Shown: piece by piece, positions 3,798 to 33,420 of the stretch
Layout: each line of letters starts with the position of its first letter
How positions within the stretch are numbered: the first letter of the stretch is position 1
DNA from: an uncultured bacterium
GTDB lineage: Bacteria; Bacillota_I; Bacilli_A; RF39; UBA660
Assembly (NCBI GenBank): GCA_900314225.1
Contig: OMUM01000080.1
Span: forward strand, 1-33,420
Length of the DNA stretch: 33,420 nucleotides
Direction of reading: 5' to 3'
Translations under genes and position numbers: made by a program
Notes under the pieces: generated by a model
The model's input: the letters and a program-made list of their open reading frames with translations, nothing else
Told to the model about the DNA's origin: nothing
Database searches by the model: none

Positions 3798-3815
3798 TTA
3801 TATCTTCTATTTTTA
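3785..3815. terminator. Shared hairpin between convergent tmk and the ATPase gene (possibly a bidirectional terminator)
   Basis: Perfect 9-bp stem AGAAGATAT / ATATCTTCT (3785-3793 / 3800-3808) with a 6-nt loop, flanked by A-rich and T-rich tracts. Confidence 0.5.
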
Positions 3816-5843
3816 TATATTTGGTTTCAATGGTGTGTTATTATTTGATGTATTTTTGGTTTCTATTGTAGTAGTAGGTGAGATTGGACTTGTTTGTCCA
3901 GTTGAATAGATATATCCTGTATTTGAATAATAATTTTGTAGAGAATTATTTGGTTTATATACTGGTATAGTTGAATTACTTTGAATGTTTTGATTATTAT
4001 TTAGATTTTGTTTTATTTCTTTTGCTTGCGCATAACTATTAATAGGTTTGTTCATTGTTGTATTTGTTATAACTGGTTCTATATTTTGCATTTGATTTTG
4101 TTGTGTTGTTGATGTTAAGTTATTAGTGCTTTTTGAATTTGTTGTGTTAATTATTGTAACATTTGACTTAACAGGATTTTGTTGAATATTTTGATTATTT
4201 GCTTTTTGTGTTGCAGGTATTTCTGTTGGCATTGTCGTTGGAGATTTTACTTTGCCTTCAATGATTGCAGTAGCTGTTTTAACGTTAGGCGTTACAACAC
4301 TATTTGTTTGTGTAGCTATTGTTTTATAATTTTTTTGATTATTGTCAATTATTGTTGAGTATCCTTTAACTGGAACTACATTTTCTGTTTTTTTATTATT
4401 TGTTTGAGTATCATTAAAGTCACTAGCACTAAAAGCTGGAGGTTTCATTAGATTAGAAATATTATTTTTGTCATTTTTTGGAATATTTGAATCTATTAAG
4501 CTATCACTTTCTTCATAATCATTATTACTAATTTCGGCATTTTTTGGAATGATTTTTTTCATGAAGTCACTAATTTCAGCTTCATAAGCATCATCATCTT
4601 CTTCTTCAGTTTCAATTTCAATATTTCTATATACTTCTTCGAATGATGTTTGGCCATTATAACATTTAATTAAAGCATCTTGTAGCATAGTTATAGTTTT
4701 ACCTGTATATACCATTTTAGCTAAGTCTTTTTTATCAAGATTTGGATTATTTAAGGCTGCTCTTATATCATCATCTAATTCAAGTACTTCGTGGAAAGCT
4801 ATACGACCATGATATCCCTTACGACAATGTTCACAGCCTTTTGGATTCGCATCCCAAATCATTGGCACATTCATATGCATAAATTTTTTAAAAACTTTTT
4901 TTTCATAAGGAGTAGTTTCTCTTTGAAAACGGCAGTCTGGACATAACATTTTAGCAAGTCTTTGAGAAATTATTCCAGTTAGTGCTGTTGATAATAAGTA
5001 TCTTTCAACATTCATATCTAGAAGTCTTTCAACTGTTGCTAATGCATTGTTAGTATGGATAGTTGATAATACTAAGTGTCCTGTGATGGAAGCACGAACA
5101 GCAATTTGGGCTGTTTCTGAATCACGAATTTCTCCTATTAGAATTATGTTAGGGTCTTGTCTTAAGATTGAACGTAGTGCTGCGGCAAATGTCATTCCAA
5201 TATCTGCGTTGACTTGAACTTGATTTATGCCTTCAATATTCATTTCAATTGGGTCTTCTACTGTTATAATATTTTTTTCCGGTTTATTAAGTTCTTGTAG
5301 AATAGAGTAAGTTGTTGTTGATTTACCTGAACCAGTAGCACCTGTTGTTAATATTATTCCGTTAGGTATTTCCATCATTCTTTTAACTTTTTTAAGATTA
5401 TCAGGATGGAAGCCTAGACTCTCAATACCTTGCATACTTCTTGTATAATCCAAAATACGAATAACGATTTTTTCTCCTTCATTTAATGGCAATGAAGATA
5501 CACGCATATCTAAGTATGTTCCACCAAATTCTCCTTTGATAGCTCCATCTTGTGGTAGACGAGATTCCGTTATATTCATGTTAGCAAGTAATTTTAGTCT
5601 TGTTGTTAAATTCTTTTCATAGGCTTTAGGAACAAATGTATAGTCTTGGCATTCACCATCAATTCTAAATCTAACCATCATTCCATTTTCACGTGGATCA
5701 AAATGAATATCTGAGGCTTTATGTTTTGAGGCTGCAATTATAATATAGTCTGCTACTTGAGTAACAGGTGTTTTTGTAAAATCAAAAGAAACCATGAAAC
5801 TTTCTGTTCCTTTTTGAACACGTTTAACATCAAATTGTATCAT
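3813..5843 (-). CDS. Type II secretion / type IV pilus assembly ATPase (GspE/PilB/ComGA family) with a long low-complexity C-terminal extension
   Basis: Walker A TGATGSGKSTT, Asp box VEDPIE, Walker B ILIGEIRD and His box TGHLVLSTIHTN. The tetracysteine CPDC...CEHC is typical of assembly ATPases. The core ends near aa 408. Residues 409-676 are first acidic and then N/T/Q/S/P-rich. Confidence 0.85.
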   Translation of the reverse strand: MIQFDVKRVQKGTESFMVSFDFTKTPVTQVADYIIIAASKHKASDIHFDPRENGMMVRFRIDGECQDYTFVPKAYEKNLTTRLKLLANMNITESRLPQDGAIKGEFGGTYLDMRVSSLPLNEGEKIVIRILDYTRSMQGIESLGFHPDNLKKVKRMMEIPNGIILTTGATGSGKSTTTYSILQELNKPEKNIITVEDPIEMNIEGINQVQVNADIGMTFAAALRSILRQDPNIILIGEIRDSETAQIAVRASITGHLVLSTIHTNNALATVERLLDMNVERYLLSTALTGIISQRLAKMLCPDCRFQRETTPYEKKVFKKFMHMNVPMIWDANPKGCEHCRKGYHGRIAFHEVLELDDDIRAALNNPNLDKKDLAKMVYTGKTITMLQDALIKCYNGQTSFEEVYRNIEIETEEEDDDAYEAEISDFMKKIIPKNAEISNNDYEESDSLIDSNIPKNDKNNISNLMKPPAFSASDFNDTQTNNKKTENVVPVKGYSTIIDNNQKNYKTIATQTNSVVTPNVKTATAIIEGKVKSPTTMPTEIPATQKANNQNIQQNPVKSNVTIINTTNSKSTNNLTSTTQQNQMQNIEPVITNTTMNKPINSYAQAKEIKQNLNNNQNIQSNSTIPVYKPNNSLQNYYSNTGYIYSTGQTSPISPTTTIETKNTSNNNTPLKPNI

Positions 5844-5968: not shown

Positions 5969-6568
5969 ATGGTAAAAAAAAATTATAAGTTAAATAATCA
6001 TGGTTTTGTTCTTGCTGAAACTTTAGTTGTTAGTGTTTTTCTTACAATAATGTTTACCATGATTTATTCTAACTATTACCCAATAATTGGGGAATATGAA
6101 AAAAGAGAAAATTATGATGATGTTGATAGTGAGTATGCTGCATATTGGATTAAAGAATTAATTGAAGATCCATATTATGATTCTTCTAATGATAATTTTA
6201 AAAAATTAGATACTGATACTTATTTTCAATTTAAATGTAGTGACTTTACTGGGTCAAGTAAAAAAAATTTATGTATAAATTTAGTTAAAGCATTCCAAAT
6301 AAATTGTATATCTGATAATAATTGTCAAATATATGTTACAAAATATCAAATTGGTGATCCAACAGGTGGAACAAATAATTTTAAATATACGGTAAAAAAT
6401 GCTCCAAAAGGTACATTTTCAAGTGGCTTTAAAGATTATGTTGCTTATTTGCAAAATTTTAAAATTGAGTCTAGATTTGGTTCTAAATATAGGGTGTTTT
6501 TGGTTATTAAACATCAAGAAGATTATAACAATTATTTAACATATTCGAATATTGAGGTGAATAGGTAA
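5969..6568 (+). CDS. Prepilin-type N-terminal domain protein (minor pilin / pseudopilin-like)
   Basis: Class III signal peptide: a basic leader, then G|FVLAE with Glu at +5, then a hydrophobic helix TLVVSVFLTIMFTMIY. SD AAGAGG. Divergent from the ATPase gene. Confidence 0.6.
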   Translation: MVKKNYKLNNHGFVLAETLVVSVFLTIMFTMIYSNYYPIIGEYEKRENYDDVDSEYAAYWIKELIEDPYYDSSNDNFKKLDTDTYFQFKCSDFTGSSKKNLCINLVKAFQINCISDNNCQIYVTKYQIGDPTGGTNNFKYTVKNAPKGTFSSGFKDYVAYLQNFKIESRFGSKYRVFLVIKHQEDYNNYLTYSNIEVNR

Positions 6569-7230
6569 TGAAGATAGTCAAATTAAATAATAAAGGTATA
6601 ACTACTATAGAAGTTATTATTTCATTTGTTATAATTGTTATAATTGCTTCATCTCTTTTTAATACAATTTCGGCATATAATCAAAAAAGATTAATAGAAA
6701 ATTATAAATCTAAAATTTATACTTATAAAAATACTTTAACTAAGACAATAGAAGATGATTTTGTAAAGATTGGATTAACTTCTGTAAATTATACTAGGAA
6801 TTTGCAAGATAATATGATAGTTAATCAATTAGACTGTACATTGAAAGATGGTACAACACGAAGATTAATTATTAAGCAAAGATTTACTCGCTCTGATATG
6901 CATCCAGATGGAAGTGTAAATTCTGGTGATTATTTTATGATTGAATATGGAAAATCTGATTTAACTAAAAGTTCTAAACAAGACCAAAATGCCAATTTAA
7001 CTGAATATCCATTGCCTGATTTGGGACATTATACTGCTAAATACAAAGGTGTTGATGGACAATCTGCATTAGATTTAACTATTAATAAAGTTAGCGTTTC
7101 ATTAGAAAATGATAGTGCAACTAAAAATGCTAATGTTTTGGCTCTCCATATTGGTTTTTATCATCCTGAATTATTGACAAGATATGGTATTAATATTGTT
7201 ACTCCAATAAATTATGTTGCAAGTGATTGA
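6568..7230 (+). CDS. Prepilin-type N-terminal domain protein (minor pilin / pseudopilin-like)
   Basis: KLNNKG|ITTIE with Glu at +5, followed by VIISFVIIVIIASSLF. TAATG coupling to the preceding pilin-like gene. Confidence 0.6.
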   Translation: MKIVKLNNKGITTIEVIISFVIIVIIASSLFNTISAYNQKRLIENYKSKIYTYKNTLTKTIEDDFVKIGLTSVNYTRNLQDNMIVNQLDCTLKDGTTRRLIIKQRFTRSDMHPDGSVNSGDYFMIEYGKSDLTKSSKQDQNANLTEYPLPDLGHYTAKYKGVDGQSALDLTINKVSVSLENDSATKNANVLALHIGFYHPELLTRYGINIVTPINYVASD

Positions 7231-9728: not shown

Positions 9729-10511
9729 ATGAAAAAAGTTTTATGTTTGTTAATTGTGTTTATGGGACTTATTACATTTAATGTTAATGCTGCTGAGTAT
9801 AAAGAATTAGAATTAATTCCAGTAAATTCAGGGGGAAATATTACTGTTACTACGAATTATTTTAAATATATAAATATTAAGTATAATAATAATAAAATTT
9901 CATTTGGAACAATTAGAAATATTTCTAGTGAAGATAAAGCAGTAACTGTATCAATTGGTTTTTTTAATGAAAATAAAATAAATATTGGTACTGTAAATTA
10001 TTGCTCTAAAGACAATAATTTAGCTCCTAAGCAAGGAATAGTATATGCAATAGACTTTGATAAAGATATTTTAGCACCTGGTAAAACAACTAAAGATATA
10101 AAATATATGGCTATAATAAGTGATAATATTAATTGTAATGTTGGTAATTCTCAAGAATATGTAGGAGATCGAATTGAAGAAATTGGGCAACCTAAGAATA
10201 ATACTTTAAGTGACAGTGAAAAAAGATTAATTAATCTTTTGCTAGTTATTGGTGGAGTTGGTTTATTTATATTTGTATATAATTATTTATTTTCAAATAA
10301 ATATAAAAATTTTGATGGAGAAGATGTAAGACAAAATTATAATTATATTAATAAAAAACTAGCTAGAAAAAGGGAATATGATGCGATTAATAATCCTCCA
10401 CAACCAAAACCTAGAAAACAAGAAAAATCAGATAAAGTTATAGCTGAAGAAAAATTAGAAAAATCAAAAGAAAATACTGATTCTTCTGATTTACATAATT
10501 TTTATAAATAA
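9729..10511 (+). CDS. Hypothetical exported protein with N-terminal signal peptide and C-terminal TM anchor
   Basis: MKKVLCLLIVFMGLITFNVNA|AEY is a signal peptide. A second TM segment (LINLLLVIGGVGLFIFVYNYLF) is followed by a K/E/P-rich tail. The ORF track starts at TTG 9711. ATG 9729 lies 7 nt after AAAGAGG. Confidence 0.5.
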   Translation: MKKVLCLLIVFMGLITFNVNAAEYKELELIPVNSGGNITVTTNYFKYINIKYNNNKISFGTIRNISSEDKAVTVSIGFFNENKINIGTVNYCSKDNNLAPKQGIVYAIDFDKDILAPGKTTKDIKYMAIISDNINCNVGNSQEYVGDRIEEIGQPKNNTLSDSEKRLINLLLVIGGVGLFIFVYNYLFSNKYKNFDGEDVRQNYNYINKKLARKREYDAINNPPQPKPRKQEKSDKVIAEEKLEKSKENTDSSDLHNFYK

Positions 10512-10892: not shown

Positions 10893-11555
10893 ATGTATAC
10901 AGTGTGTTTAGTTGAAGACGAAGAAGCTTTATCTAATGTTGTTAAGGCATATTTAGAAAGAGCTGGTTATAAGGTAATTTGTTTTACTAAGGGAAGTGAA
11001 GCAATTAATTATATCGGAAATAAAGTGGATGTTTGGATCTTAGATATAATGTTAGGAGATGATGTAAATGGATATGATGTAATCAAAGCTATCCGTGAAA
11101 ATAATGAAAATGTTCCTGTAATATTTACATCCGCAAGAGATCAAGAACTTGATAAGATATTTGGATTGGAACTTGGTAGTGATGATTACATGACAAAGCC
11201 GTATTCTAGTAAAGAACTTGTTTTAAGAGTTAATAATATTATTAAAAGAGTTTATAAATCTGATAATAAAATAAATATAATTAATTATGAAGATTATATA
11301 ATTGATCTTGATAAAAGAAAAGTTGAACAAGATAAAAAAAATATAAAATTAACAACACTTGAATTTGATTTATTAGTTTTATTATTAAAAAATAAAGGTA
11401 AATGTTTTACTAGAGAAGAAATATTGAGTGAAGTATGGGGAAATGATTATTTTGGGACTGATAGAGTAGTCGATGATTTGATTAGACGTCTTAGAAAGAA
11501 ACTCCCTAAATTGAATATTGAAGCTGTTTATGGCTATGGATATAGATTATCATGA
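10893..11555 (+). CDS. OmpR/PhoB-family response regulator
   Basis: Receiver domain (VWILDIMLGD acceptor Asp, YMTKPY) plus a winged-helix trans_reg_C domain (LTTLEFDLLVLLL ... VDDLIRRLRKKL ... GYGYRL). Confidence 0.9.
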   Translation: MYTVCLVEDEEALSNVVKAYLERAGYKVICFTKGSEAINYIGNKVDVWILDIMLGDDVNGYDVIKAIRENNENVPVIFTSARDQELDKIFGLELGSDDYMTKPYSSKELVLRVNNIIKRVYKSDNKINIINYEDYIIDLDKRKVEQDKKNIKLTTLEFDLLVLLLKNKGKCFTREEILSEVWGNDYFGTDRVVDDLIRRLRKKLPKLNIEAVYGYGYRLS

Positions 11556-12838
11556 AAAATTTTTATAAAAAATATAGTCTATCTAAGCAACTAATAATAA
11601 TTGTTGGTATAACATTCTTCTTATTATTTCTTTCTTTAGGGATAATTCTACCTAGACTGTTAATTCCCTTAGCTGAGTCAAATATCTATAATTATTTAAG
11701 TGAACCACTAAAAGTTTATACTAATAATAGTCCTACTGAATTAAAGAATAGTGAAATTGCTTTTATTTATATTTCTAATGATAATGTCATTGCTAGTAGA
11801 AATATAAATGATGTTATCAAAACTAAAAATTTAAATAAAATAATAAATAAAATGAATGACTCATATGGAAAATTTACTTATAATTATAAAACATACTACT
11901 ACTATACTTTAAAAGATGATAATATAAAAAAAATAGCTATTGCTGATGATAGTTATATTAATAGAACGAAAGAAGATATTATAAAAGCAATATTTCCAAC
12001 TATACTTGCTACATTTCTTTTAATTAGTTTAACACTACTTTTTTGGTCTACTATTGTAATACATAAGATTGATAAATTAAAAGAAAAAATAGATAATATT
12101 GATAATCCAGATTATGATCATAAATTAAATTTTCAAGTTGATGACGAGATGAGATCTTTAGAGTTAGCCATTGAAGATATGCGTATTTCTCTTATCAATC
12201 AAGAGAAGTATCGTAATCAGATGTATCAAAATATTTCACATGATTTTAAAACGCCTCTCACTGTAATAAAATCATATATTGAAGCTGTAGAAGATGGAGT
12301 AGAAGATAATGCTACTGCACTTGCTACTATTAAAGAACAGACAAATAAATTAGAACAAAAAGTACACTCACTTCTTTATCTAAATAAACTTGATTATCTT
12401 AAAAATTCTAAGAATATTAATATGGATGAAATAGACATGGAAAAAGTCATACACTCGGAAGTAGAAAAGTTTAAATTTACTAGAAAAGAAATTAATTTTG
12501 AAGTAAACTTTGATAAGAAGTCTAAGTTCTATGGATCTATTGAAAATTGGGAAACGATTCTTGATAATTTACTTAGTAATTTTATGAGATATGCTAAAAA
12601 TAATATTAAAATTACGGTTAAACAGAATAAATTAATTTTATATAATGATGGAGAAAATATTGATAATGATTTCCTAGAAGCTATATTTACTCCCTTTAGG
12701 AAAGGAATAAAAGGTCAATTTGGATTAGGTTTATCTATTGTTAAAAAAACCCTTAACTTAATGGAATATGATATTACTATAAAAAATGAAAAAAAAGGTG
12801 TATCATTTATTATTACTCGTGAGAAAGGCCATAGTTAA
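11552..12838 (+). CDS. Sensor histidine kinase (HisKA + HATPase_c), two TM segments
   Basis: H-box SHDFKTPLT, N-box LDNLLSNFMRYA and G-box GQFGLGLSIV. ATGA overlap with the regulator gene. Confidence 0.9.
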   Translation: MKNFYKKYSLSKQLIIIVGITFFLLFLSLGIILPRLLIPLAESNIYNYLSEPLKVYTNNSPTELKNSEIAFIYISNDNVIASRNINDVIKTKNLNKIINKMNDSYGKFTYNYKTYYYYTLKDDNIKKIAIADDSYINRTKEDIIKAIFPTILATFLLISLTLLFWSTIVIHKIDKLKEKIDNIDNPDYDHKLNFQVDDEMRSLELAIEDMRISLINQEKYRNQMYQNISHDFKTPLTVIKSYIEAVEDGVEDNATALATIKEQTNKLEQKVHSLLYLNKLDYLKNSKNINMDEIDMEKVIHSEVEKFKFTRKEINFEVNFDKKSKFYGSIENWETILDNLLSNFMRYAKNNIKITVKQNKLILYNDGENIDNDFLEAIFTPFRKGIKGQFGLGLSIVKKTLNLMEYDITIKNEKKGVSFIITREKGHS

Positions 12839-18418: not shown

Positions 18419-19450
18419 ATGGATAATTTTAAAAATGAAGTGTATGATAAGCAAGGATATGATAAATTTGGTTATAACAAAGATGGTTATAATAGAAGAG
18501 GATTTAATGGATTAGGTGTTCATTTAAATGGTACTATGTATGATACTGAAGGTTATGATAAAGATGGGTATGATATAAATGGTTTTTCAATAAGTCATAT
18601 ACATAAAAATGGTTCTAGGTTTGATAATGATGGTTATAATTATTATGGATATGATTTTGAGGGCTTTAATAAAAAAGGTTATAATAAAAAAGGTTTTAAT
18701 AAGAAACATATTCATTTAAATGGTACTTTATATAATGATGATGGTTATGATTATAAAGGCTATAATAATAAAGGCTTTAATAGTAAAGGTTACGATAAAT
18801 GTGGTTATGATGAAGATGGTTATGATAAGGATGGTTATGATAAAAGAGGCTTTGATAAGAACGGTATTCATCGTAATGGAACGTTATTTGATGATAATGG
18901 ACTTGATATTAATCAAAAATATATTGATGGAGAATCTTTTGAAGAAAAGAAAAAAGCTAGATATAATACATTTTTAAGTATTATAAATGATATTTATAAT
19001 AATAATATAAGTATTGAAGAATATATAAAGAAATATAATTTAAATTATGTTGATTTAATAGCTTTTTCTAAAAAGGAACATTTAAATCCAAAAATTATAA
19101 GAAGTTTGTCTTCACATATAAAAGAATATAATTCATTAATAAAACCATTTGATATAGATTATTTTTTGGAACACATTCGTTTTCTTATAGATGGTAAATT
19201 AGTTATACCTAAAAGAGATGATGTAGAAAAAGTAACAAAATATTTAAGGTTGAATAATAGACTTGTTTGTGAAAAAATTGTAAGTAATACTGTAAAAGAA
19301 TATTATAAAGGAAATATTGACTTAAATAAAATCGATAATAAATCAGAATTAGGAAAACAAGAAGAAATATCAAAAATGTTAGATGTGCAATCAGCTAAAC
19401 TTGATGAATTAGAAAAATCTTCTAAAAAATTAAAAAAGAAAAATATATAA
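18419..19450 (+). CDS. Cytoplasmic repeat protein: about 29 G-[YF]-[DN]-x-x pentads (aa 13-165) plus a ~175-aa non-repetitive C-terminal domain ending in a K/E-rich coil
   Basis: SD GTGAGG 6 nt upstream of the ATG. No signal peptide or TM segment. The repeat architecture was read directly from the translation. No family recognised. Confidence 0.7.
   Translation: MDNFKNEVYDKQGYDKFGYNKDGYNRRGFNGLGVHLNGTMYDTEGYDKDGYDINGFSISHIHKNGSRFDNDGYNYYGYDFEGFNKKGYNKKGFNKKHIHLNGTLYNDDGYDYKGYNNKGFNSKGYDKCGYDEDGYDKDGYDKRGFDKNGIHRNGTLFDDNGLDINQKYIDGESFEEKKKARYNTFLSIINDIYNNNISIEEYIKKYNLNYVDLIAFSKKEHLNPKIIRSLSSHIKEYNSLIKPFDIDYFLEHIRFLIDGKLVIPKRDDVEKVTKYLRLNNRLVCEKIVSNTVKEYYKGNIDLNKIDNKSELGKQEEISKMLDVQSAKLDELEKSSKKLKKKNI
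18455..18913 (+). repeat. In-frame 15-nt-period coding repeat (GYDKD-type pentads) organised in four super-repeats
   Basis: Gly recurs every 5 residues from aa 13 to 161. A +2 register jump follows each [GH][VI]H[LKR]NG[TS]x[YF][DN]xx terminator motif. Module lengths are 32, 27, 37 and 52 aa, each 5n+2. Confidence 0.8.
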
Positions 19451-27458: not shown

Positions 27459-27668
27459 ATGCTACATGATATATTATTATTAATATTAGGAATAGTTATT
27501 GGAGGTATTATTGGTTTCTTTTTAGCTAGATTTTTTATGAAAAAATATTTAAAGAAAAATCCTCCTATTAATGAGGAAATGATTAAAACTTTAATGTCTC
27601 AAATGGGAAGGACACCTAATAAGAAACAAATAAATCAAATGATGAAGGCTATGGAAAAATACCAGTAA
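27459..27668 (+). CDS. yneF: UPF0154 small membrane protein YneF
   Basis: One N-terminal TM helix and the hallmark [14 protein letters not shown]...[11 protein letters not shown]. Close to B. subtilis YneF. Confidence 0.85.
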
Positions 27669-27679
27669 TGGTATTTTAT

Positions 27680-27708
27680 TTGATTTTACTTATAAAATAT
27701 GATATAAT
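27680..27708 (+). promoter_or_regulatory. Putative sigma-A promoter (TTGATT, 17-nt spacer, TATAAT)
   Basis: A -35 at 27680-27685 and a consensus -10 at 27703-27708. It lies inside the 5' part of the tracked ORF, which argues for the downstream start. Confidence 0.5.
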
Positions 27709-27739
27709 ACAGTCGTTTAGTTGGAGGGATATGTATAAA

Positions 27740-29206
27740 ATGGATACAAGAAAGTATATTGAAAATTTATATAATTATGTAAATAAAAATGATATTACTA
27801 TTGAAGAATATTATAGAGAACTTGCTGATAATTATAGAAAAAGTAGGTTTTCTTTAATTGAAGATTTTGAAAAAGACAATCCTTTTATTACAAGTGAAGA
27901 TTTTTTAAAATTAACTAGTAGTAATGATGAAAATATGAATAAATATTTTTCTAATAAAATGACTAAAGTAATTCAAGCAAATGTATTAGATTTATTGAAT
28001 AAATCTAAAAATGAAAATTTAGATTCTGATAGTAAAAGTGATACTGATGATGAAGAATATGAAATTTCTGATAATAAGAAAGATAAGTTTACATTATTTT
28101 TGAATGAGGATTCACAAGAGTTATTTGCTAGAGGTTATTTGTTTGAAAGATTTAATATAAGCCCTGGTAGAAAAGTTAAAGTTAGTGGAGTAATTTGCTA
28201 TAGTTTATCAAAGGATGATTATCAAACTATTATGAATAATAGAAATAATGAAGTTTCTCCATATGTCGTTGAAATAAAGACAATTGTTCCTGTTAGAAAA
28301 GAAAAGACTGATGAAGAAGCAAAAAAGGGTAATTCTAATGGAATTGATTTAACTAATTTATCAGATGATGAGTTAGAATCAAGAATTCAGAATTTATGGA
28401 ATTTTGGTGCACATCAAGAAAATGGATTAAATGAGAATAGTGATTTATCAAATGAATGGGATGCTTTAGTGGCAGAAAAAAATAGACGTCAAGCTGCAAA
28501 AAGCAAAACTAATAATAATACACAAAATAATTCTGATTTAGATAAATTATTATCTGAACTTGAAAATGAATTAAATGAAATAAATAAATTAATTAAAGAG
28601 TTAGAAAGATTAATTCAAGTACTTGAAAATAATTTAAATAATTTGAATGATAAGAAAGTTTCTAAACCAGTAGATTTGGAAAATGAAGATAGTAAAACTG
28701 ACCAAGAAAAAGATAAAGATAGTATAGATCAAGAAAAAAATGAATCAATTCAAAATTTTATGAATGAGATAAATAATAAAATAGCAAAAGATAAAGAGAC
28801 TTCTAATGATGGTTCAATTAACATACCTATTGATTCAGAAGAAACAAAAAAATGTCTTGTATATCATTATGAAGAAAAAGATAAATATTATGTTCAAGAT
28901 GAATTATTTGATGATGAATTATTTAAAAAATTAAATATTAAACCTAAAGAAGGAAGTATTAAGTTTGATGGAAAAAGTTGTCATGAAATAAGCAAAGATG
29001 ATCTTAATAAATTAAAAGATAAAATTGATAATAACTTTATTATTGATTTTGTTAATATTAATGATAGTATGAAAAATGAACAAAAAAATGAAAAGACTGC
29101 TGATGATAATATTTCTTCTAGTGATGATATTGAGTCAATTATTGATAGATTATTTGATGAAGATAATGAAAAAAGTGAAGAAGAAGTTAGTGGTTTATCT
29201 TTGTGA
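27740..29206 (+). CDS. Acidic coiled-coil protein with an internally duplicated ~30-aa motif; function unknown
   Basis: ATG 27740 lies 11 nt after GGAGGG; ATG 27731 is an alternative. The 27668 start would place a consensus promoter inside the gene. D/E/N/K-rich with a central heptad-like LDKLLSELENELNEINKLIKELERLIQVLENNLNNL. Confidence 0.6.
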   Translation: MDTRKYIENLYNYVNKNDITIEEYYRELADNYRKSRFSLIEDFEKDNPFITSEDFLKLTSSNDENMNKYFSNKMTKVIQANVLDLLNKSKNENLDSDSKSDTDDEEYEISDNKKDKFTLFLNEDSQELFARGYLFERFNISPGRKVKVSGVICYSLSKDDYQTIMNNRNNEVSPYVVEIKTIVPVRKEKTDEEAKKGNSNGIDLTNLSDDELESRIQNLWNFGAHQENGLNENSDLSNEWDALVAEKNRRQAAKSKTNNNTQNNSDLDKLLSELENELNEINKLIKELERLIQVLENNLNNLNDKKVSKPVDLENEDSKTDQEKDKDSIDQEKNESIQNFMNEINNKIAKDKETSNDGSINIPIDSEETKKCLVYHYEEKDKYYVQDELFDDELFKKLNIKPKEGSIKFDGKSCHEISKDDLNKLKDKIDNNFIIDFVNINDSMKNEQKNEKTADDNISSSDDIESIIDRLFDEDNEKSEEEVSGLSL

Positions 29207-29301: not shown

Positions 29302-31062
29302 ATGAAAGACTTTAAAGAAAAACTTAGTTTAGTGCCTAAAAAACCAGGTAGTTATCAAATGAAAAATAAAGATGGAGTAATTATCTATGTTGGTAAAGCT
29401 AAAAATTTACAAAGAAGGCTGAGAAGTTATTTTACAAGAACTGTTACAGGTAAAACTAGAATGTTAGTAGAAGATATAGATGACTTTGAATATATTGTTA
29501 CATCTTCAGAATTAGAGAGTTTAATACTGGAAATTACTTTAATTAAAAAATATGATCCTAAATATAATATTTTACTTAGAGATGATAAATCTTATCCATA
29601 TATAGAATTAACTAATGATAAATATCCAGTTGTAAAAATAATTAGAAATGCTAAAAGGAAAAAAATAAAAGATCATTTATATGGACCGTATCCTAATGCT
29701 TCGGCAGCTAGAAAAACAGTAAATATTATTAATAGAATGTACCCACTTAGAAAGTGTGATAAATTAAAGAAAGATTTATGTTTATATTATCATATTAATG
29801 AATGTCTAGGATATTGTAAGATAGATGTTCCTAAAGAAAAAATAGATGAGATGAAAAAAGAGATTATTACTTTTTTAAAGGGAGATAGTTCAATTATTTC
29901 AAAAAAAATAGAAGATGAAATGTTAAAAGCAAGTGAAGCAATGAATTATGAACGTGCTCAAGAATTAAAAAGTATGTTAGATGATATCAATACAACATTA
30001 AAGAAGCAAAAGATTGATCTTAATCATAATTATAATTTTGATTTAGTTAATTATTATTATGAAAATAATTATTTAGCAATTGAAATATTTTTTATAAGAG
30101 ATGGATTATTATTTGGAAGACATAATGAGATAATTGCTTCTATTGGAGATATTTCTGAAGAAATAACAGAATATTTAGTTAAATTTTATGATAAAGGAGT
30201 ATTACCTCGTGAATTACTAATACCAGAAGAATTAGATGAAAATTTATTAAAAGATTATTTTAAAATTAAAGTTATTAAACCTAAAAAAGGTAAATTGAAG
30301 AATTTAGTAGATTTAGCAAAAGAAAATGCTAAAGAGCAAATGGATTTAGAAGGAGAAACATTAAAAAGAGATGATGAAGAAAGATTAAAAGCTGAAGAGG
30401 AATTAAAAAATTTACTTGGACTTAAAGAGTTAAGAAGAATAGAATCTTTTGATAATTCTCATTTATTTGGAACTTTTTATGTAGGTGGTATGGTTGTTTT
30501 TGATGATTTCCTTCCTAATAAAGATTTATATCGAAAATATAAGATTTCTACAGATGTTAAAGATGATATTGGTGCTATGAAAGAAGTTATTTATAGAAGA
30601 TATTTTAAAACTATAATGAATGAATCATATAAACCTGATTTAATTGTAATGGACGGAGGTAAAGCTCAAATAGATGCTTGTAAAGAGGTATTAGATTCCT
30701 TAAATTTATATATTCCAATTATTGGTTTAGTAAAGGATGATAAGCATAGAACTAATCATATAATGAATGAGAATTTAGAAATATTAGATGTTCCAAAAGA
30801 TTCAAAATTATTTTTATTTTTAACTAGGATTCAAGATGAGGTACATAGATATGCTATTACATATCACAGAAATATTAAGGCTAAAGGTGCTTTATCTAGT
30901 ATTTTAGATGTTGTACCTGGAATTGGTGAGGTAAGAAAAAAAGAATTATTAAAAAAATTTGGATCTTTAAAGAAGATGAAAGAAGCAAGTGTTGATGAAT
31001 TGTCTGAAGTAGTTAATAGGGAAGTTGCTGAAAAACTTTTTGAATATTTAAAAGAGATATAG
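29302..31062 (+). CDS. uvrC: Excinuclease ABC subunit C
   Basis: GIY-YIG N-terminus (PGSYQMKNKDGVIIYVGKAKNLQRRLRSYF), a UVR domain (NYERAQELKSMLDDI), an endonuclease V-like domain, and a C-terminal (HhH)2 (VPGIGEVRKKELLKKFGSLKKMKEASVDEL). Confidence 0.95.
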   Translation: MKDFKEKLSLVPKKPGSYQMKNKDGVIIYVGKAKNLQRRLRSYFTRTVTGKTRMLVEDIDDFEYIVTSSELESLILEITLIKKYDPKYNILLRDDKSYPYIELTNDKYPVVKIIRNAKRKKIKDHLYGPYPNASAARKTVNIINRMYPLRKCDKLKKDLCLYYHINECLGYCKIDVPKEKIDEMKKEIITFLKGDSSIISKKIEDEMLKASEAMNYERAQELKSMLDDINTTLKKQKIDLNHNYNFDLVNYYYENNYLAIEIFFIRDGLLFGRHNEIIASIGDISEEITEYLVKFYDKGVLPRELLIPEELDENLLKDYFKIKVIKPKKGKLKNLVDLAKENAKEQMDLEGETLKRDDEERLKAEEELKNLLGLKELRRIESFDNSHLFGTFYVGGMVVFDDFLPNKDLYRKYKISTDVKDDIGAMKEVIYRRYFKTIMNESYKPDLIVMDGGKAQIDACKEVLDSLNLYIPIIGLVKDDKHRTNHIMNENLEILDVPKDSKLFLFLTRIQDEVHRYAITYHRNIKAKGALSSILDVVPGIGEVRKKELLKKFGSLKKMKEASVDELSEVVNREVAEKLFEYLKEI

Positions 31063-31100
31063 TATAATTTAGATATAGAATATGTACTGGAGATGTAGTT

Positions 31101-31280
31101 ATGAATAACAAGGGTTTTACATTGGTTGAGATTTTAGCTACGATTGCAATTTTAGGAATACTTTCTGGGATTGTTATTGGAGGAGTACAGAAATATATTG
31201 AGAAATCAAGACAACAGGCATATGATACTTTAGCAAGTAGTTCGATTGATGCAACAAAAGAGTATGTAATGGATCATCCA
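31101..31280 (+). repeat. Conserved 180-nt pilin 5' cassette, copy 1
   Basis: Differs from copy 2 at 3 positions (aac/aat, aag/aaa, gag/gaa), all synonymous. Identity starts at the ATG and decays after codon 60. Confidence 0.9.
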
Positions 31281-32090
31281 GGTGTTACAAATATAAGTTT
31301 TTCTTCTTTAAAAGATGGTGATTATATCAATAATATTAAAGATCCTAAAGATAAGTCGAAAGACTGTGCTGGAAGAGTTGAGATAATAAAATCCTATTAT
31401 GGTGATGGAACATCATTAGATGATTATAAATATAAAGTTATTATGTGTTGTGGTGTTAGTAATTTTTCTTATGATTTTCCTGATTACAACAAAAAGCCAA
31501 ATTCTAAATGTGGTATATATGTTAATGTGTTTTTTGAAGGAAATGGAGGTACTTTGTCTCAAACATCAAAAATTGTTACTTATAATTCCACTTATGGTAG
31601 TTTACCATCTGCATATAAAACTGGGGCTGTATTTGCAGGTTGGTATAGTAATTCTAGTTTGACTAATAAAATTGGTACGGCTTCTATAGTATCTACAACT
31701 CAAGATCATACACTATATGCAAAATGGAAAAATAATTTATATGGTTTTGATTATAACCCTGATTCAAATAAATATGGTACAGGTTATCCGTCAGGTGCTC
31801 ATGTAAAGTCTCTTGATCTTAAAATTGTGAGTCCAAGTGGTAAGGTATTGTACAATTATAAAGGAATAAGTGATATTTGTAATACTTGGGGATGTGCTTC
31901 TGAATCATTTATTGAGTATGGTTCTACATATTATTTTACAAATGTAAAATATAGAGATAGCTATACATATAGCCATTATAGTATTACAAATAATATACCA
32001 GTTTCTGTTAAAAATGGTGGAACGGAATTTACGTTTAAGCATTCTTATCCCGGTGATATTAGTTTTAATATTTTTACTAAAGTTAAATAA
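31101..32090 (+). CDS. Modular type IV pilin: prepilin N-terminus and pilin head, one Listeria-Bacteroides (Flg_new) repeat, and an unknown beta-rich C-module
   Basis: MNNKG|FTLVEILATIAILGILSGIVIGG is a class III signal peptide with Glu+5. aa 139-209 (VNVFFEGNGGTL...GAVFAGWYSN...DHTLYAKW) match the Flg_new/PF09479 pattern. SD GGAG. Confidence 0.8.
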   Translation: MNNKGFTLVEILATIAILGILSGIVIGGVQKYIEKSRQQAYDTLASSSIDATKEYVMDHPGVTNISFSSLKDGDYINNIKDPKDKSKDCAGRVEIIKSYYGDGTSLDDYKYKVIMCCGVSNFSYDFPDYNKKPNSKCGIYVNVFFEGNGGTLSQTSKIVTYNSTYGSLPSAYKTGAVFAGWYSNSSLTNKIGTASIVSTTQDHTLYAKWKNNLYGFDYNPDSNKYGTGYPSGAHVKSLDLKIVSPSGKVLYNYKGISDICNTWGCASESFIEYGSTYYFTNVKYRDSYTYSHYSITNNIPVSVKNGGTEFTFKHSYPGDISFNIFTKVK

Positions 32091-32120
32091 CTATTAATAA
32101 TTATATTTAGGAGAAGGTTT

Positions 32121-32300
32121 ATGAATAATAAAGGTTTTACATTGGTTGAAATTTTAGCTACGATTGCAATTTTAGGAATACTTTCTGGGATTGTTATTGG
32201 AGGAGTACAGAAATATATTGAGAAATCAAGACAACAGGCATATGATACTTTAGCAAGTAGTTCGATTGATGCAACAAAAGAGTATGTAATGGATCATCCT
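32121..32300 (+). repeat. Conserved 180-nt pilin 5' cassette, copy 2
   Basis: See copy 1. Confidence 0.9.
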
Positions 32301-33251
32301 GGAGTTGAACAAGTATATTTTGATGATTTACTAGAAGGGAATTATATAGATAATATTTCTAATCCTAAAGATAATTCTAGTAATTGTTCTGGTAGAGTTA
32401 AAGTCAATACTAAAAAGGGCTCCAACGGAGTTTTAGATGATTACACATATAATGTATTTATGTGTTGCGGATCTGATAATTATGCTTATGAATTTCCTAA
32501 AAAAAAGCATTACAAAACAAATAATTGTAAAGCTCATGCTTATGATATAAGTGAAATAAAAGAGATAAAAGTGCTTCATGTATATCCATATAATGCTGTG
32601 GCAAATCAGCTTAAGAATTGGATGGCTGATAAAAAACACGGCGATGAGAGAATTAAAGTTAGTTCTGTTTATATTGATGAATTTAATAAAAATCCAATTA
32701 ATTATTTAGGTTCAATAGGCAATTGGAAAGCCGACGTTATTGTCTTTGGCTTTTGGGATTGTAATGCAAGTAAAGATTTATCTAAGAATTCAGCACAATT
32801 AGTTGATAAATTTTTAAGTACCGGTGGCTCAGCTATATTTGGACATGATACTATAACTAAAGGATGTGGTAATCATACTAATTTTATTTCATTACAGCAA
32901 TATGTTAATGTTGAGGCAACTAGTGATTTAAGTTGGAATGGAAGTAATAAAGTTACAATTGTTAAGTCAGGAATTTTTACAGAATATCCTTATAGAATTG
33001 GTAATCAAGAAACTGTATTAACAATACCAACTAGTCATTGCTATGGACAAGTAGCTCATGGAGATGTTTGGTTAACGTATAATGGAATTACTTCTTCAGC
33101 AAATAAAAATGTTTATTTATCAACATATGGAAATAATGCTTTGATTCAAACTGGACATTCTAGTGGTCAAGCAACAGAAGATGAACAAAAGATAATTGCT
33201 AATATAATTTTTTATATGAAAGCAAACCAGGATGGATTGGTATCTGATTAA
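32121..33251 (+). CDS. Modular type IV pilin: same N-terminus and pilin head, plus a ~230-aa alpha/beta C-module (GATase1/ThuA-like fold suspected)
   Basis: The first 62 aa are identical to the 31101 gene. The head region is homologous (PKD..S..C.GRV...LDDY.Y.V.MCCG). The C-module shows alternating beta-alpha signatures (KVLHVYPY, ADVIVFGFWD, GGSAIFGHDT, LIQTGHSSG). Confidence 0.8.
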   Translation: MNNKGFTLVEILATIAILGILSGIVIGGVQKYIEKSRQQAYDTLASSSIDATKEYVMDHPGVEQVYFDDLLEGNYIDNISNPKDNSSNCSGRVKVNTKKGSNGVLDDYTYNVFMCCGSDNYAYEFPKKKHYKTNNCKAHAYDISEIKEIKVLHVYPYNAVANQLKNWMADKKHGDERIKVSSVYIDEFNKNPINYLGSIGNWKADVIVFGFWDCNASKDLSKNSAQLVDKFLSTGGSAIFGHDTITKGCGNHTNFISLQQYVNVEATSDLSWNGSNKVTIVKSGIFTEYPYRIGNQETVLTIPTSHCYGQVAHGDVWLTYNGITSSANKNVYLSTYGNNALIQTGHSSGQATEDEQKIIANIIFYMKANQDGLVSD

Positions 33252-33278
33252 AAATTATGATTGTTAGGAGAAAAATTA

Positions 33279-33420
33279 TGAATAATAAAGGTTTTACATT
33301 GGTTGAGATTTTAGCTACGATTGCAATTTTAGGAATACTTTCTGGGATTGTTATTGGAGGAGTACAGAAATATATTGAGAAATCAAGACAACAGGCATAT
33401 GATACTTTAGCAAGTAGTTC
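33279..33420 (+). CDS. Third pilin paralog, 5' partial (runs off the window)
   Basis: 142 nt differ from the same segment of the 32121 gene at one position. It has its own AGGAG SD. Confidence 0.8.
33279..33420 (+). repeat. Conserved pilin 5' cassette, copy 3 (truncated by the window edge)
   Basis: See copy 1. Confidence 0.9.

Follow-up and report, generated by a model that had tools for sequence, protein, structure and literature searches.

The 33,420-nucleotide (nt) stretch analysed here, contig OMUM01000080.1 of assembly GCA_900314225.1 from an uncultured bacterium and referred to below as the window, has a G+C content of 24.8% and ends in a tandem array of type IV pilin genes, which we named P1, P2 and P3. 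The three genes are consecutive, lie on the same strand directly 3' of uvrC, and encode proteins in which a pilin part (the stem, with its Cys-containing head) is followed by a C-terminal module. The open reading frames (ORFs), with lengths in amino acids (aa), are as follows:

29302 to 31062, + strand: uvrC, the upstream boundary of the pilin slot, with GIY-YIG/UvrC Pfam domains on the identical gene of contig L001
31101 to 32090, + strand: P1, modular type IV pilin of 329 aa, an ORF with a Shine-Dalgarno sequence and with N_methyl and TIGR02532 matches above the cut-offs
31101 to 31511, + strand: P1 pilin module, aa 1-137, with class III signal peptide, alpha1 helix and four-Cys head
32121 to 33251, + strand: P2, modular type IV pilin of 376 aa, with the same stem and then a DUF5057-family alpha/beta module
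32121 to 32531, + strand: P2 pilin module, aa 1-137, from the AlphaFold2 (AF2) model and the stem alignment
33278 to 33420, + strand: 5' part of P3, 47 codons, running past the window end; complete on L001 at 11158-12291

A Shine-Dalgarno sequence stands 7-8 nt before each ATG (GGAG at 31089-31092 for P1, AGGAG at 32109-32113 for P2 and AGGAG at 33266-33270 for P3), and all three genes start with MNNKGFTLVEILATIAILGILSGIVIGGVQKYIEKSRQQAYDTLASS. The prepilin N-terminus common to P1, P2 and P3, as read directly, is MNNKG/FTLVEIL, where the slash marks the predicted cleavage site. A preliminary description of the window had reported tandem, same-strand pilin genes, each with its own Shine-Dalgarno sequence and the same prepilin start, and this is confirmed by the ORFs, the Shine-Dalgarno sites and the matches to PF07963 and TIGR02532.

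The full extent of the array can be seen on L001, a contig of 58.5 kb that is 99.6% identical to the window across 11.3 kb. Exactly three pilin genes lie there between uvrC and mutL, and the gene order after the array is mutL, miaA, rpsT, gpr and spoIIP. P3, which has 377 aa on L001, is paralogous to P2 and ends in the module that P2 also carries, so that this genome has two types of module rather than three. The preliminary description had proposed at least three paralogs that swap modules; with the contig extended to mutL the number of genes holds, but the third copy repeats the module of the second. The exact P2 protein was found on four rumen metagenome contigs, and the nearest genome bins are the uncultured rumen Erysipelotrichaceae RUG13444 and RUG12194.

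With regard to the pilin part, P1 and P2 scored above the cut-offs of both PF07963 (30.1 and 29.9 bits, respectively, cut-off 21.2) and TIGR02532 (29.8 and 29.6 bits, cut-off 16.3), and the class III signal peptide of P1 is predicted to be cut between G5 and F6. The heads (aa 63-137) are homologous, with 42-55% identity at the amino acid level, and have four conserved Cys in common, at positions 89, 116, 117 and 137 of P1, which confirms the homologous Cys-containing heads noted earlier. The AF2 models of both proteins place the alpha1 helix at aa 8-58 and the head strands at aa 90-133 with a regional predicted local distance difference test (pLDDT) score of ~85-94; the whole-model pLDDT is 89.6 for P2 and 87.9 for P1, and the C-terminal domains are separate from the head. 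In sequence searches the N-terminus resembled that of solved pilins, including Streptococcus sanguinis PilE1 (8pfb) and Neisseria PilE. Searches of PDB sequences with P1, P2 and the family profile matched the N-terminal pilin helix only and gave nothing for the modules, and Foldseek against viral structures returned nothing informative. As judged by sequence and modelled fold, P1 and P2 are type IV pilins. Each of P1-P3 is a complete small pilin module followed, after a linker of ~10-20 residues, by a surface-protein module, and the three are modular pilins by definition because the domains joined to the complete pilin also occur in non-pilin proteins. The earlier designation as modular type IV pilins is supported on the same grounds.

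The stems are mosaics of nearly identical and clearly diverged DNA, and two homogenised tracts can be delimited:

31101 to 31286, + strand: P1 copy of the shorter homogenised tract, nt 1-186 of P1, matching 32121-32306 in P2 and 33278 onward in P3
32121 to 32587, + strand: second and longer homogenised tract, common to P2 and P3 (nt 1-467), with 7 differences in 467 nt

The P1 and P2 proteins are identical over the first 62 codons, and the 5 nt that differ among these 186 are all synonymous. Just past nt 186 there are 12 differences in 20 nt, followed by ~62% identity through the head, so that identity breaks from 97% to 62% at this point; between P2 and P3 the break comes at nt 467, from 98.5% to 55-85%. 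The repetition is also seen as a 168-nt direct repeat with three occurrences at 88-95% identity, far beyond chance. Elsewhere, within-genome DNA identity of the stems is 70-87% (L007 and L009) or ~75% (RUG12194), and since the stems are less alike in these other genomes, the near-identity in the window reflects recent gene conversion, not constraint alone. As read from the sequences, the stems have undergone recent gene conversion in nested tracts.

Compared with RUG12194, the ratio of nonsynonymous to synonymous substitution rates (dN/dS) is 0.27 for the module of P3 and 0.28 for that of P1, which indicates, as estimated from these alignments, that both modules are under purifying selection. 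In RUG12194 itself (L006, 747-2782) the P1-like gene is frameshifted into ORFs of 85 aa and 224 aa, and the stem of the P3-like gene is interrupted by an in-frame stop and has lost 87 nt by deletion.

The C-terminal modules

P1 consists of the leader MNNKG, the stem, a B-repeat and a beta-sandwich, and P2 of the same stem and one alpha/beta module:

31527 to 31724, + strand: P1 Listeria-Bacteroides (InlB-type) B-repeat, aa 143-208, from PF09479 and Foldseek
31734 to 32087, + strand: P1 C-terminal beta-sandwich, aa ~212-329, all-beta in AF2 and like Gram-positive adhesin stalk domains
32565 to 33230, + strand: P2 module, aa ~149-370, with a class I glutamine-amidotransferase-like/ThuA-like fold
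32841 to 32852, + strand: GHDT motif of the P2 module, G241-T244, invariant in 53 aligned pilin and non-pilin members

The B-repeat of P1 matched Flg_new (PF09479) with an E-value of 1.8e-14 and 54 bits (cut-off 27) and TIGR02543 with 28.8 bits (cut-off 20.95), and its Foldseek match was the InlB B-repeat 2y5p, with a template modelling (TM) score, normalised to the target, of 0.86 and a root-mean-square deviation (rmsd) of 2.0. For the domain behind it, the Foldseek neighbours were SdrD B domains, the Mobiluncus adhesin 5u6f and a Bacillus anthracis TIE protein (E 3e-5 to 2e-4); these alignments cover most of the two-domain model at high rmsd, and the beta-sandwich was for this reason assigned by elimination. 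Its likeness to CnaB/SdrD-B stalk domains is at fold level only (E 3e-5 to 2e-2), and it has no Pfam match. An exhaustive search of representative sequences gave only 22 relatives of this terminal domain, among them a GH5 cellulase, ricin-lectin proteins of actinobacteria and other giant pilins of 717-965 aa; one more relative has a weak MucBP match below the threshold. A word-indexed homology search with the P1 module returned the module itself and one close relative only. The Listeria-Bacteroides repeat and the beta-rich domain of the preliminary description are thus confirmed, by PF09479 and by the all-beta AF2 model, respectively.

The alpha/beta domain that had been described for P2 was likewise recovered in the AF2 model (aa ~149-370), and Foldseek supports the earlier statement that the modules of P1 and P2 are unrelated, the two having different folds. 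When compared with the PDB, the P2 module matched PurQ (3d54_D, E 6.3e-6), HisH (7ac8_D) and the glutaminase domain of CTP synthase (2vkt), and further the ThuA-like structures 4jqs and 4e5v, the GH42 beta-galactosidase 5e9a and the N-terminal domain of IFT52 (5fms). Matches to this fold group ranged from E 6e-6 to 5e-4, with TM scores (target) of 0.5-0.6 for single-domain targets. The overall alpha/beta fold is alike, but sequence identity to the group is only ~10-13%, and no Pfam match to GATase or ThuA models was obtained; the likeness of the P2 module to the amidotransferase group is one of fold only.

By sequence, the module belongs with DUF5057. P2 of the window did not match the DUF5057 model PF16480 even at E <= 1, and no Pfam family was found for its module; the model, which spans only the first half of the structural domain, is nevertheless matched by 38 of the 53 aligned family members (E <= 0.01). 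In BLASTP, P2 is 35% identical (E 3e-47) to the RefSeq 'DUF5057 domain-containing protein' WP_256499738.1, and the motifs GHDT, SH and IQTGHSxGxATxDEQK are kept between the two. In the AF2 model GHDT sits after the fourth beta-strand, which by topology would be the nucleophile-elbow position of true amidotransferases. Conservation among the 53 homologs extends to H306, H346 (nearly invariant) and E355, whereas no invariant or near-invariant Cys, as a catalytic nucleophile would require, is present in the module across them; C214 of P2 is Ser or Val in other family members. A reading of the module as an amidotransferase or peptidase was rejected on this account, and the enzyme role that had been suggested for the alpha/beta domain is not supported. 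The module of P2 and P3 is probably a non-canonical surface domain that binds a ligand or a metal, not an amidotransferase.

Clustered at 90% identity, proteins of the P2 architecture (stem and module, 365-400 aa) fall into more than 80 clusters, of which nearly all are unnamed, and P2-type modules are also found in signal-peptide proteins that have no pilin stem, some of which carry Flg_new repeats. No mention of DUF5057 was found in the literature searched. The gene of WP_256499738.1 (L102, 5006-9154, on the Bacillus pumilus plasmid NZ_CP101834.1) follows directly after WxL-domain and DUF3324 genes, a neighbourhood that places the DUF5057 domain in WxL-type cell-surface gene clusters. Another non-pilin surface protein of the DUF5057 type, P0089/P0090, is encoded at 8001-10162 on L099-L101, contigs that come from three different ENA metagenome assemblies. 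Its gene is present either as a single ORF of 636 aa or as two ORFs of 494 and 224 aa, and the protein has index entries in 250 blocks of the assembly collection. The plasmid-like element on which it lies carries a Rep3 initiator, a type I restriction-modification system, a PemK toxin and a resolvase, and gives no clue to function.

The uvrC-mutL slot in related genomes

The arrangement of uvrC, one to three pilin genes and mutL was found on at least nine independent contigs, and on L007, L009, L012, L013, L015, L017, L020, L021 and L025 the pilin gene or genes follow uvrC directly. When metagenomes were scanned with the stem profile, most matches were distant pilins, and the only new slot examples were L019, L020, L021 and L025. 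The slots are occupied as follows:

L007 (GCA_002369415.1): a 345-aa pilin with a Cys-rich module and a 382-aa DUF5057-type pilin
L009: two DUF5057-type pilins
L017: three DUF5057-type pilins
L019: one 300-aa pilin with a different small module
L020: one 178-aa pilin
L012, L013, L015 and L021: one stem-only pilin of 137-138 aa

The stem-only pilins P0132-P0135 (L012, L013 and L015) are 43-50% identical to the stem of the window over 93% of its length, have the same four Cys and end 2-3 residues past the fourth. As these pilins end where the modules of P1 and P2 begin, the modules have been grafted onto the C-terminus of a complete pilin. Comparison of the aligned sequences in this conserved chromosomal slot provides direct evidence for such grafting, right after the last disulfide Cys, and the slot presents a series that starts with a stem-only pilin, passes through one extended pilin and leads to modular pilins in tandem, two or three to a slot. 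The variety of modules is a variety across genomes in the same slot: stem-only, Cys-rich, the small 300-aa variant, B-repeat/beta-sandwich and DUF5057. Comparison of synteny in related genomes thus bears out a conserved slot with exchanged modules, but not an exchange from copy to copy within this genome.

The Cys-rich module is a third type, a domain of ~200 aa that has motifs like CRRYKYxxxxCxCTYSKxxNKxCSSS and no Pfam match. It is represented by the proteins P0104, P0072 and P0111 and is carried by the first slot pilin of L007 (8913-9950), at the C-terminus of a 477-aa pilin that has a DUF5057 module as well, and at that of a 965-aa pilin.

The gene just upstream of uvrC (27668-29206 of the window, + strand) encodes a 512-aa low-complexity acidic/coiled-coil protein; its counterparts have 740 aa in L007 (4835-7057) and 1201 aa, with DUF285, in L017 (2145-5750). 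This gene differs among the loci, and the region flanking the slot is therefore variable too. A horizontal-transfer island was considered but is not supported, as the difference in G+C (28-32% against 19-27% in the flanks) is mild and synteny is kept across lineages.

A search for expression signals gave one candidate:

~31040 to 31068, + strand: weakly supported promoter-like site, TTGAAT-17-TATAAT, 32 nt ahead of P1 and overlapping the stop codon of uvrC

This site, found at 8920-8948 of L001 and mapped from there to the window, agrees with the consensus at 10 of 12 positions, and such matches are frequent in AT-rich DNA (35 observed, 25 expected). No terminator-like site was found inside the array. 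An Rfam scan of the window gave three tRNAs only. A 343-aa ORF with no Pfam family lies between tRNA genes (18419-19450, + strand); its N-terminal ~170 residues are degenerate GYDKDGY/GFNKKG repeats, with 15- and 30-nt tandem repeats at 18667-18859.

Assembly machinery and interpretation of the array

Candidate components of the assembly machinery lie at the other end of the window:

3813 to 5843, - strand: PilB/GspE-type ATPase (PF00437 T2SSE, E 1.6e-115), candidate filament motor
5969 to 6568, + strand: minor-pilin-like ORF of 199 aa, NNHG/FVLAETLVV, with a weak N-terminal ComGD match (E 0.003)
6568 to 7230, + strand: minor-pilin-like ORF of 220 aa, NNKG/ITTIEVIIS, with an N-terminal ComGE match (E 9e-7) below the cut-off

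Of the GspE and PilB models, only the C-terminal ~380 positions are covered by the ATPase, which is without the PilB N-terminal domain. The ATPase keeps the CPDC...CEHC Cys motif and ends in a low-complexity tail of ~270 aa rich in N, Q, T and S, which is unusual for this ATPase family. As had been stated earlier, uvrC adjoins the array and this is the only T2SSE/PilB-type ATPase in the window, ~25 kb from the array; no pilC or pilD lies beside it. The two short ORFs are divergent from the ATPase and belong to no Pfam family, and from their N-terminal sequences they are probably minor pilins. The pilus genes are evidently scattered in the genome.

From the gene structure, motifs, predicted folds, module homology, synteny, mosaic identity and purifying selection described above, we consider it fairly probable that the three genes form a tandem array of modular type IV pilins in the conserved uvrC-mutL slot of a rumen Erysipelotrichaceae genome, with adhesion modules that are displayed on a filament. 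For the processing, polymerisation, filament position and ligand of P1-P3 we infer the following scheme. A prepilin peptidase would cut P1-P3 at G5/F6, and the ATPase at 3813-5843, together with the two adjoining minor-pilin-like proteins, would polymerise the stems into a type IV filament. The modules would then be exposed beyond the cell wall, and the analogy of S. sanguinis PilB and PilC makes a position at the tip, or a low density, most likely. There they may mediate adhesion, probably to glycans or other rumen surfaces as argued from domain context. As to its history, the array may have arisen when a stem-only slot pilin of ~137 aa was duplicated and then extended with Firmicute surface-protein domains, with gene conversion among the tandem copies keeping the assembly interface identical while heads and modules diverged.

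Several points weigh against this interpretation. Neither a T2SSF platform gene nor one for a prepilin peptidase (Peptidase_A24) turned up in the 33-kb window, within 10 kb on its upstream side (L011) or within 10 kb beyond the array, and the stem search found no small stem-only (major-type) pilin with this stem for the organism. It should also be underlined that P1-P3 are known only from metagenome assemblies, and that for both modules the adhesion role is argued from domain context. Finally, both copies in RUG12194 are interrupted, for which repeat collapse during assembly is as likely a cause as real decay.

One alternative is that the modular pilins have replaced the ancestral major pilin of the slot, in which case the filament would consist largely or wholly of 35-40-kDa subunits and display its modules along its length in the manner of a bottle brush. 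The slot of the relatives indeed holds a single stem-only pilin, whereas no stem-only gene is left in any modular slot (window/L001, L007, L009 and L017). The stem search, which included the contigs of this organism, gave no short pilin of more than 50% identity that covers the stem; the more identical short matches P0136 and P0137 (82-85 aa) cover less than half of it, P0136 being the frameshifted P1-like gene of L006. The strong Shine-Dalgarno sequences of all three genes point in the same direction. However, in modelling of S. sanguinis PilB bulky modules fit best at the tip (PMC8179133), and a major pilin of different sequence could lie elsewhere in the genome. We regard such a replacement as unlikely, and the large subunits are most likely tip or minor components. 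Were it to have occurred, the filament would be a polyvalent polymer in which each subunit carries a DUF5057- or adhesin-type domain, and the identical alpha1 would let the different modules co-polymerise.

It also seems rather improbable that the class III signal peptide serves for export and anchoring only, or for a short pseudopilus or bindosome-like layer, P1-P3 then being surface-anchored binding proteins. Such anchoring has a precedent in archaea, where there are sugar-binding proteins that carry class III signal peptides. The picture would agree with the fact that no PilC, PilD, PilM/N/O or PilT is in view, that the ATPase stands alone and has no PilB N-terminal domain, and that the same modules otherwise occur on ordinary secreted surface proteins. 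The stem is, however, a complete pilin that has Glu5 and the conserved disulfide-bonded head and matches the stem-only pilins of the slot, and that alpha1 is so strictly homogenised agrees with selection for co-assembly.

A competence (Com-type) DNA-uptake pilus, with the slot pilin as a ComGC-like major subunit co-transcribed with DNA-repair genes, is in our view very improbable. In its favour, the pilin abuts uvrC and mutL in the stem-only genomes, the N-terminus of the ATPase is of ComGA-like length and its score against the ComGA model is 268.6 bits (cut-off 300), and the adjacent ORFs are weak ComGD and ComGE matches. On the other hand, membership of ComGC (NF040999) was rejected at 20.4 and 18.4 bits against a cut-off of 75, no comGB lies beside the ATPase and no com-operon organisation was seen, and the modules are of adhesin type with no DNA-binding signature. 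On L012 the stem-only pilin gene (9999-10424) is separated by 1 nt from uvrC and by 9 nt from mutL, and this tight packing suggests co-transcription with the DNA-repair genes.

That the array consists of decaying or non-functional duplicates, as the interrupted copies of RUG12194 might imply, is hardly credible given ORFs that four independent assemblies show to be intact, with the same or almost the same sequence, a full-length architecture in more than 80 clusters, module dN/dS of 0.27-0.28 and motifs that are invariant across 53 homologs. Cassettes for antigenic variation were rejected, since each of the three copies is an ORF of full length that has a start codon and a Shine-Dalgarno sequence of its own.

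Comparison with known systems

The locus reveals no new mechanism, and we interpret it as a new and clear example of the established modular-pilin design. What it adds is a widespread, unannotated architecture, pilin with DUF5057/amidotransferase-like domain, in more than 80 clusters from rumen and gut Erysipelotrichaceae-like bacteria, and an unusually clear evolutionary series in one syntenic slot that shows the point at which modules are grafted. The uncharacterised DUF5057 domain thereby gains a context of extracellular display, and for an uncultured rumen lineage that has received little study, type IV filaments come into view as possible organelles of adhesion.

The class of modular pilins was defined in S. 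sanguinis, in which PilB is a pilin with a vWA domain and PilC a pilin with a lectin domain (Raynaud et al. 2021, PMC8179133); the modular minor pilins of this species are also treated by Shahin et al. 2023 (PMC9934059). An InterPro survey counted ~1,200 modular pilins in 264 architectures (PMC8179133), and the combination of a pilin (IPR012902) with an InlB-like B-repeat (IPR013378) is already catalogued in Dataset S1 of that paper. The preliminary description had not recognised the array as a described locus. This is true of the locus itself, and a literature search for 'Erysipelotrichaceae' with 'type IV pilin' found no paper, but the design has been described and catalogued. In contrast to the catalogued combination, the beta-domain of P1 and the P2/P3 module of the window have no Pfam match, so that a screen by domain signatures would miss both.

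P1-P3 resemble S. sanguinis PilB and PilC in having a monoderm host, a complete small pilin, a short linker, a bulky domain known outside pili and a presumed role in adhesion by filament display. They differ in their modules, here a B-repeat with a beta-sandwich and a DUF5057/amidotransferase-like domain, and in forming a tandem array with stems that are near-identical in DNA. Moreover, the genes in the window lie between housekeeping genes and far from the ATPase, not in a pil operon, with no separate major pilin in view, and they are known from sequence alone. With the DUF5057 surface proteins of Bacillus and Clostridium, P2 and P3 have in common a homologous, extracellular domain; there it is part of a large secreted multidomain protein, whereas in P2 and P3 a pilin stem carries it.

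Concerted evolution of pilin paralogs is known from Neisseria pilE/pilS and from the tandem pilE1/pilE2 of S. sanguinis (PMC6497953). As in those systems, recombination appears to hold the N-terminus constant while the C-terminal parts vary. In contrast to them, the copies in the array are full-length genes with their own ribosome-binding sites and not silent cassettes, there is no evidence of programmed variation, and it is a whole grafted domain that varies, not surface loops. The array would thus be a case in which recombination holds the assembly helix constant while both heads and modules diverge.

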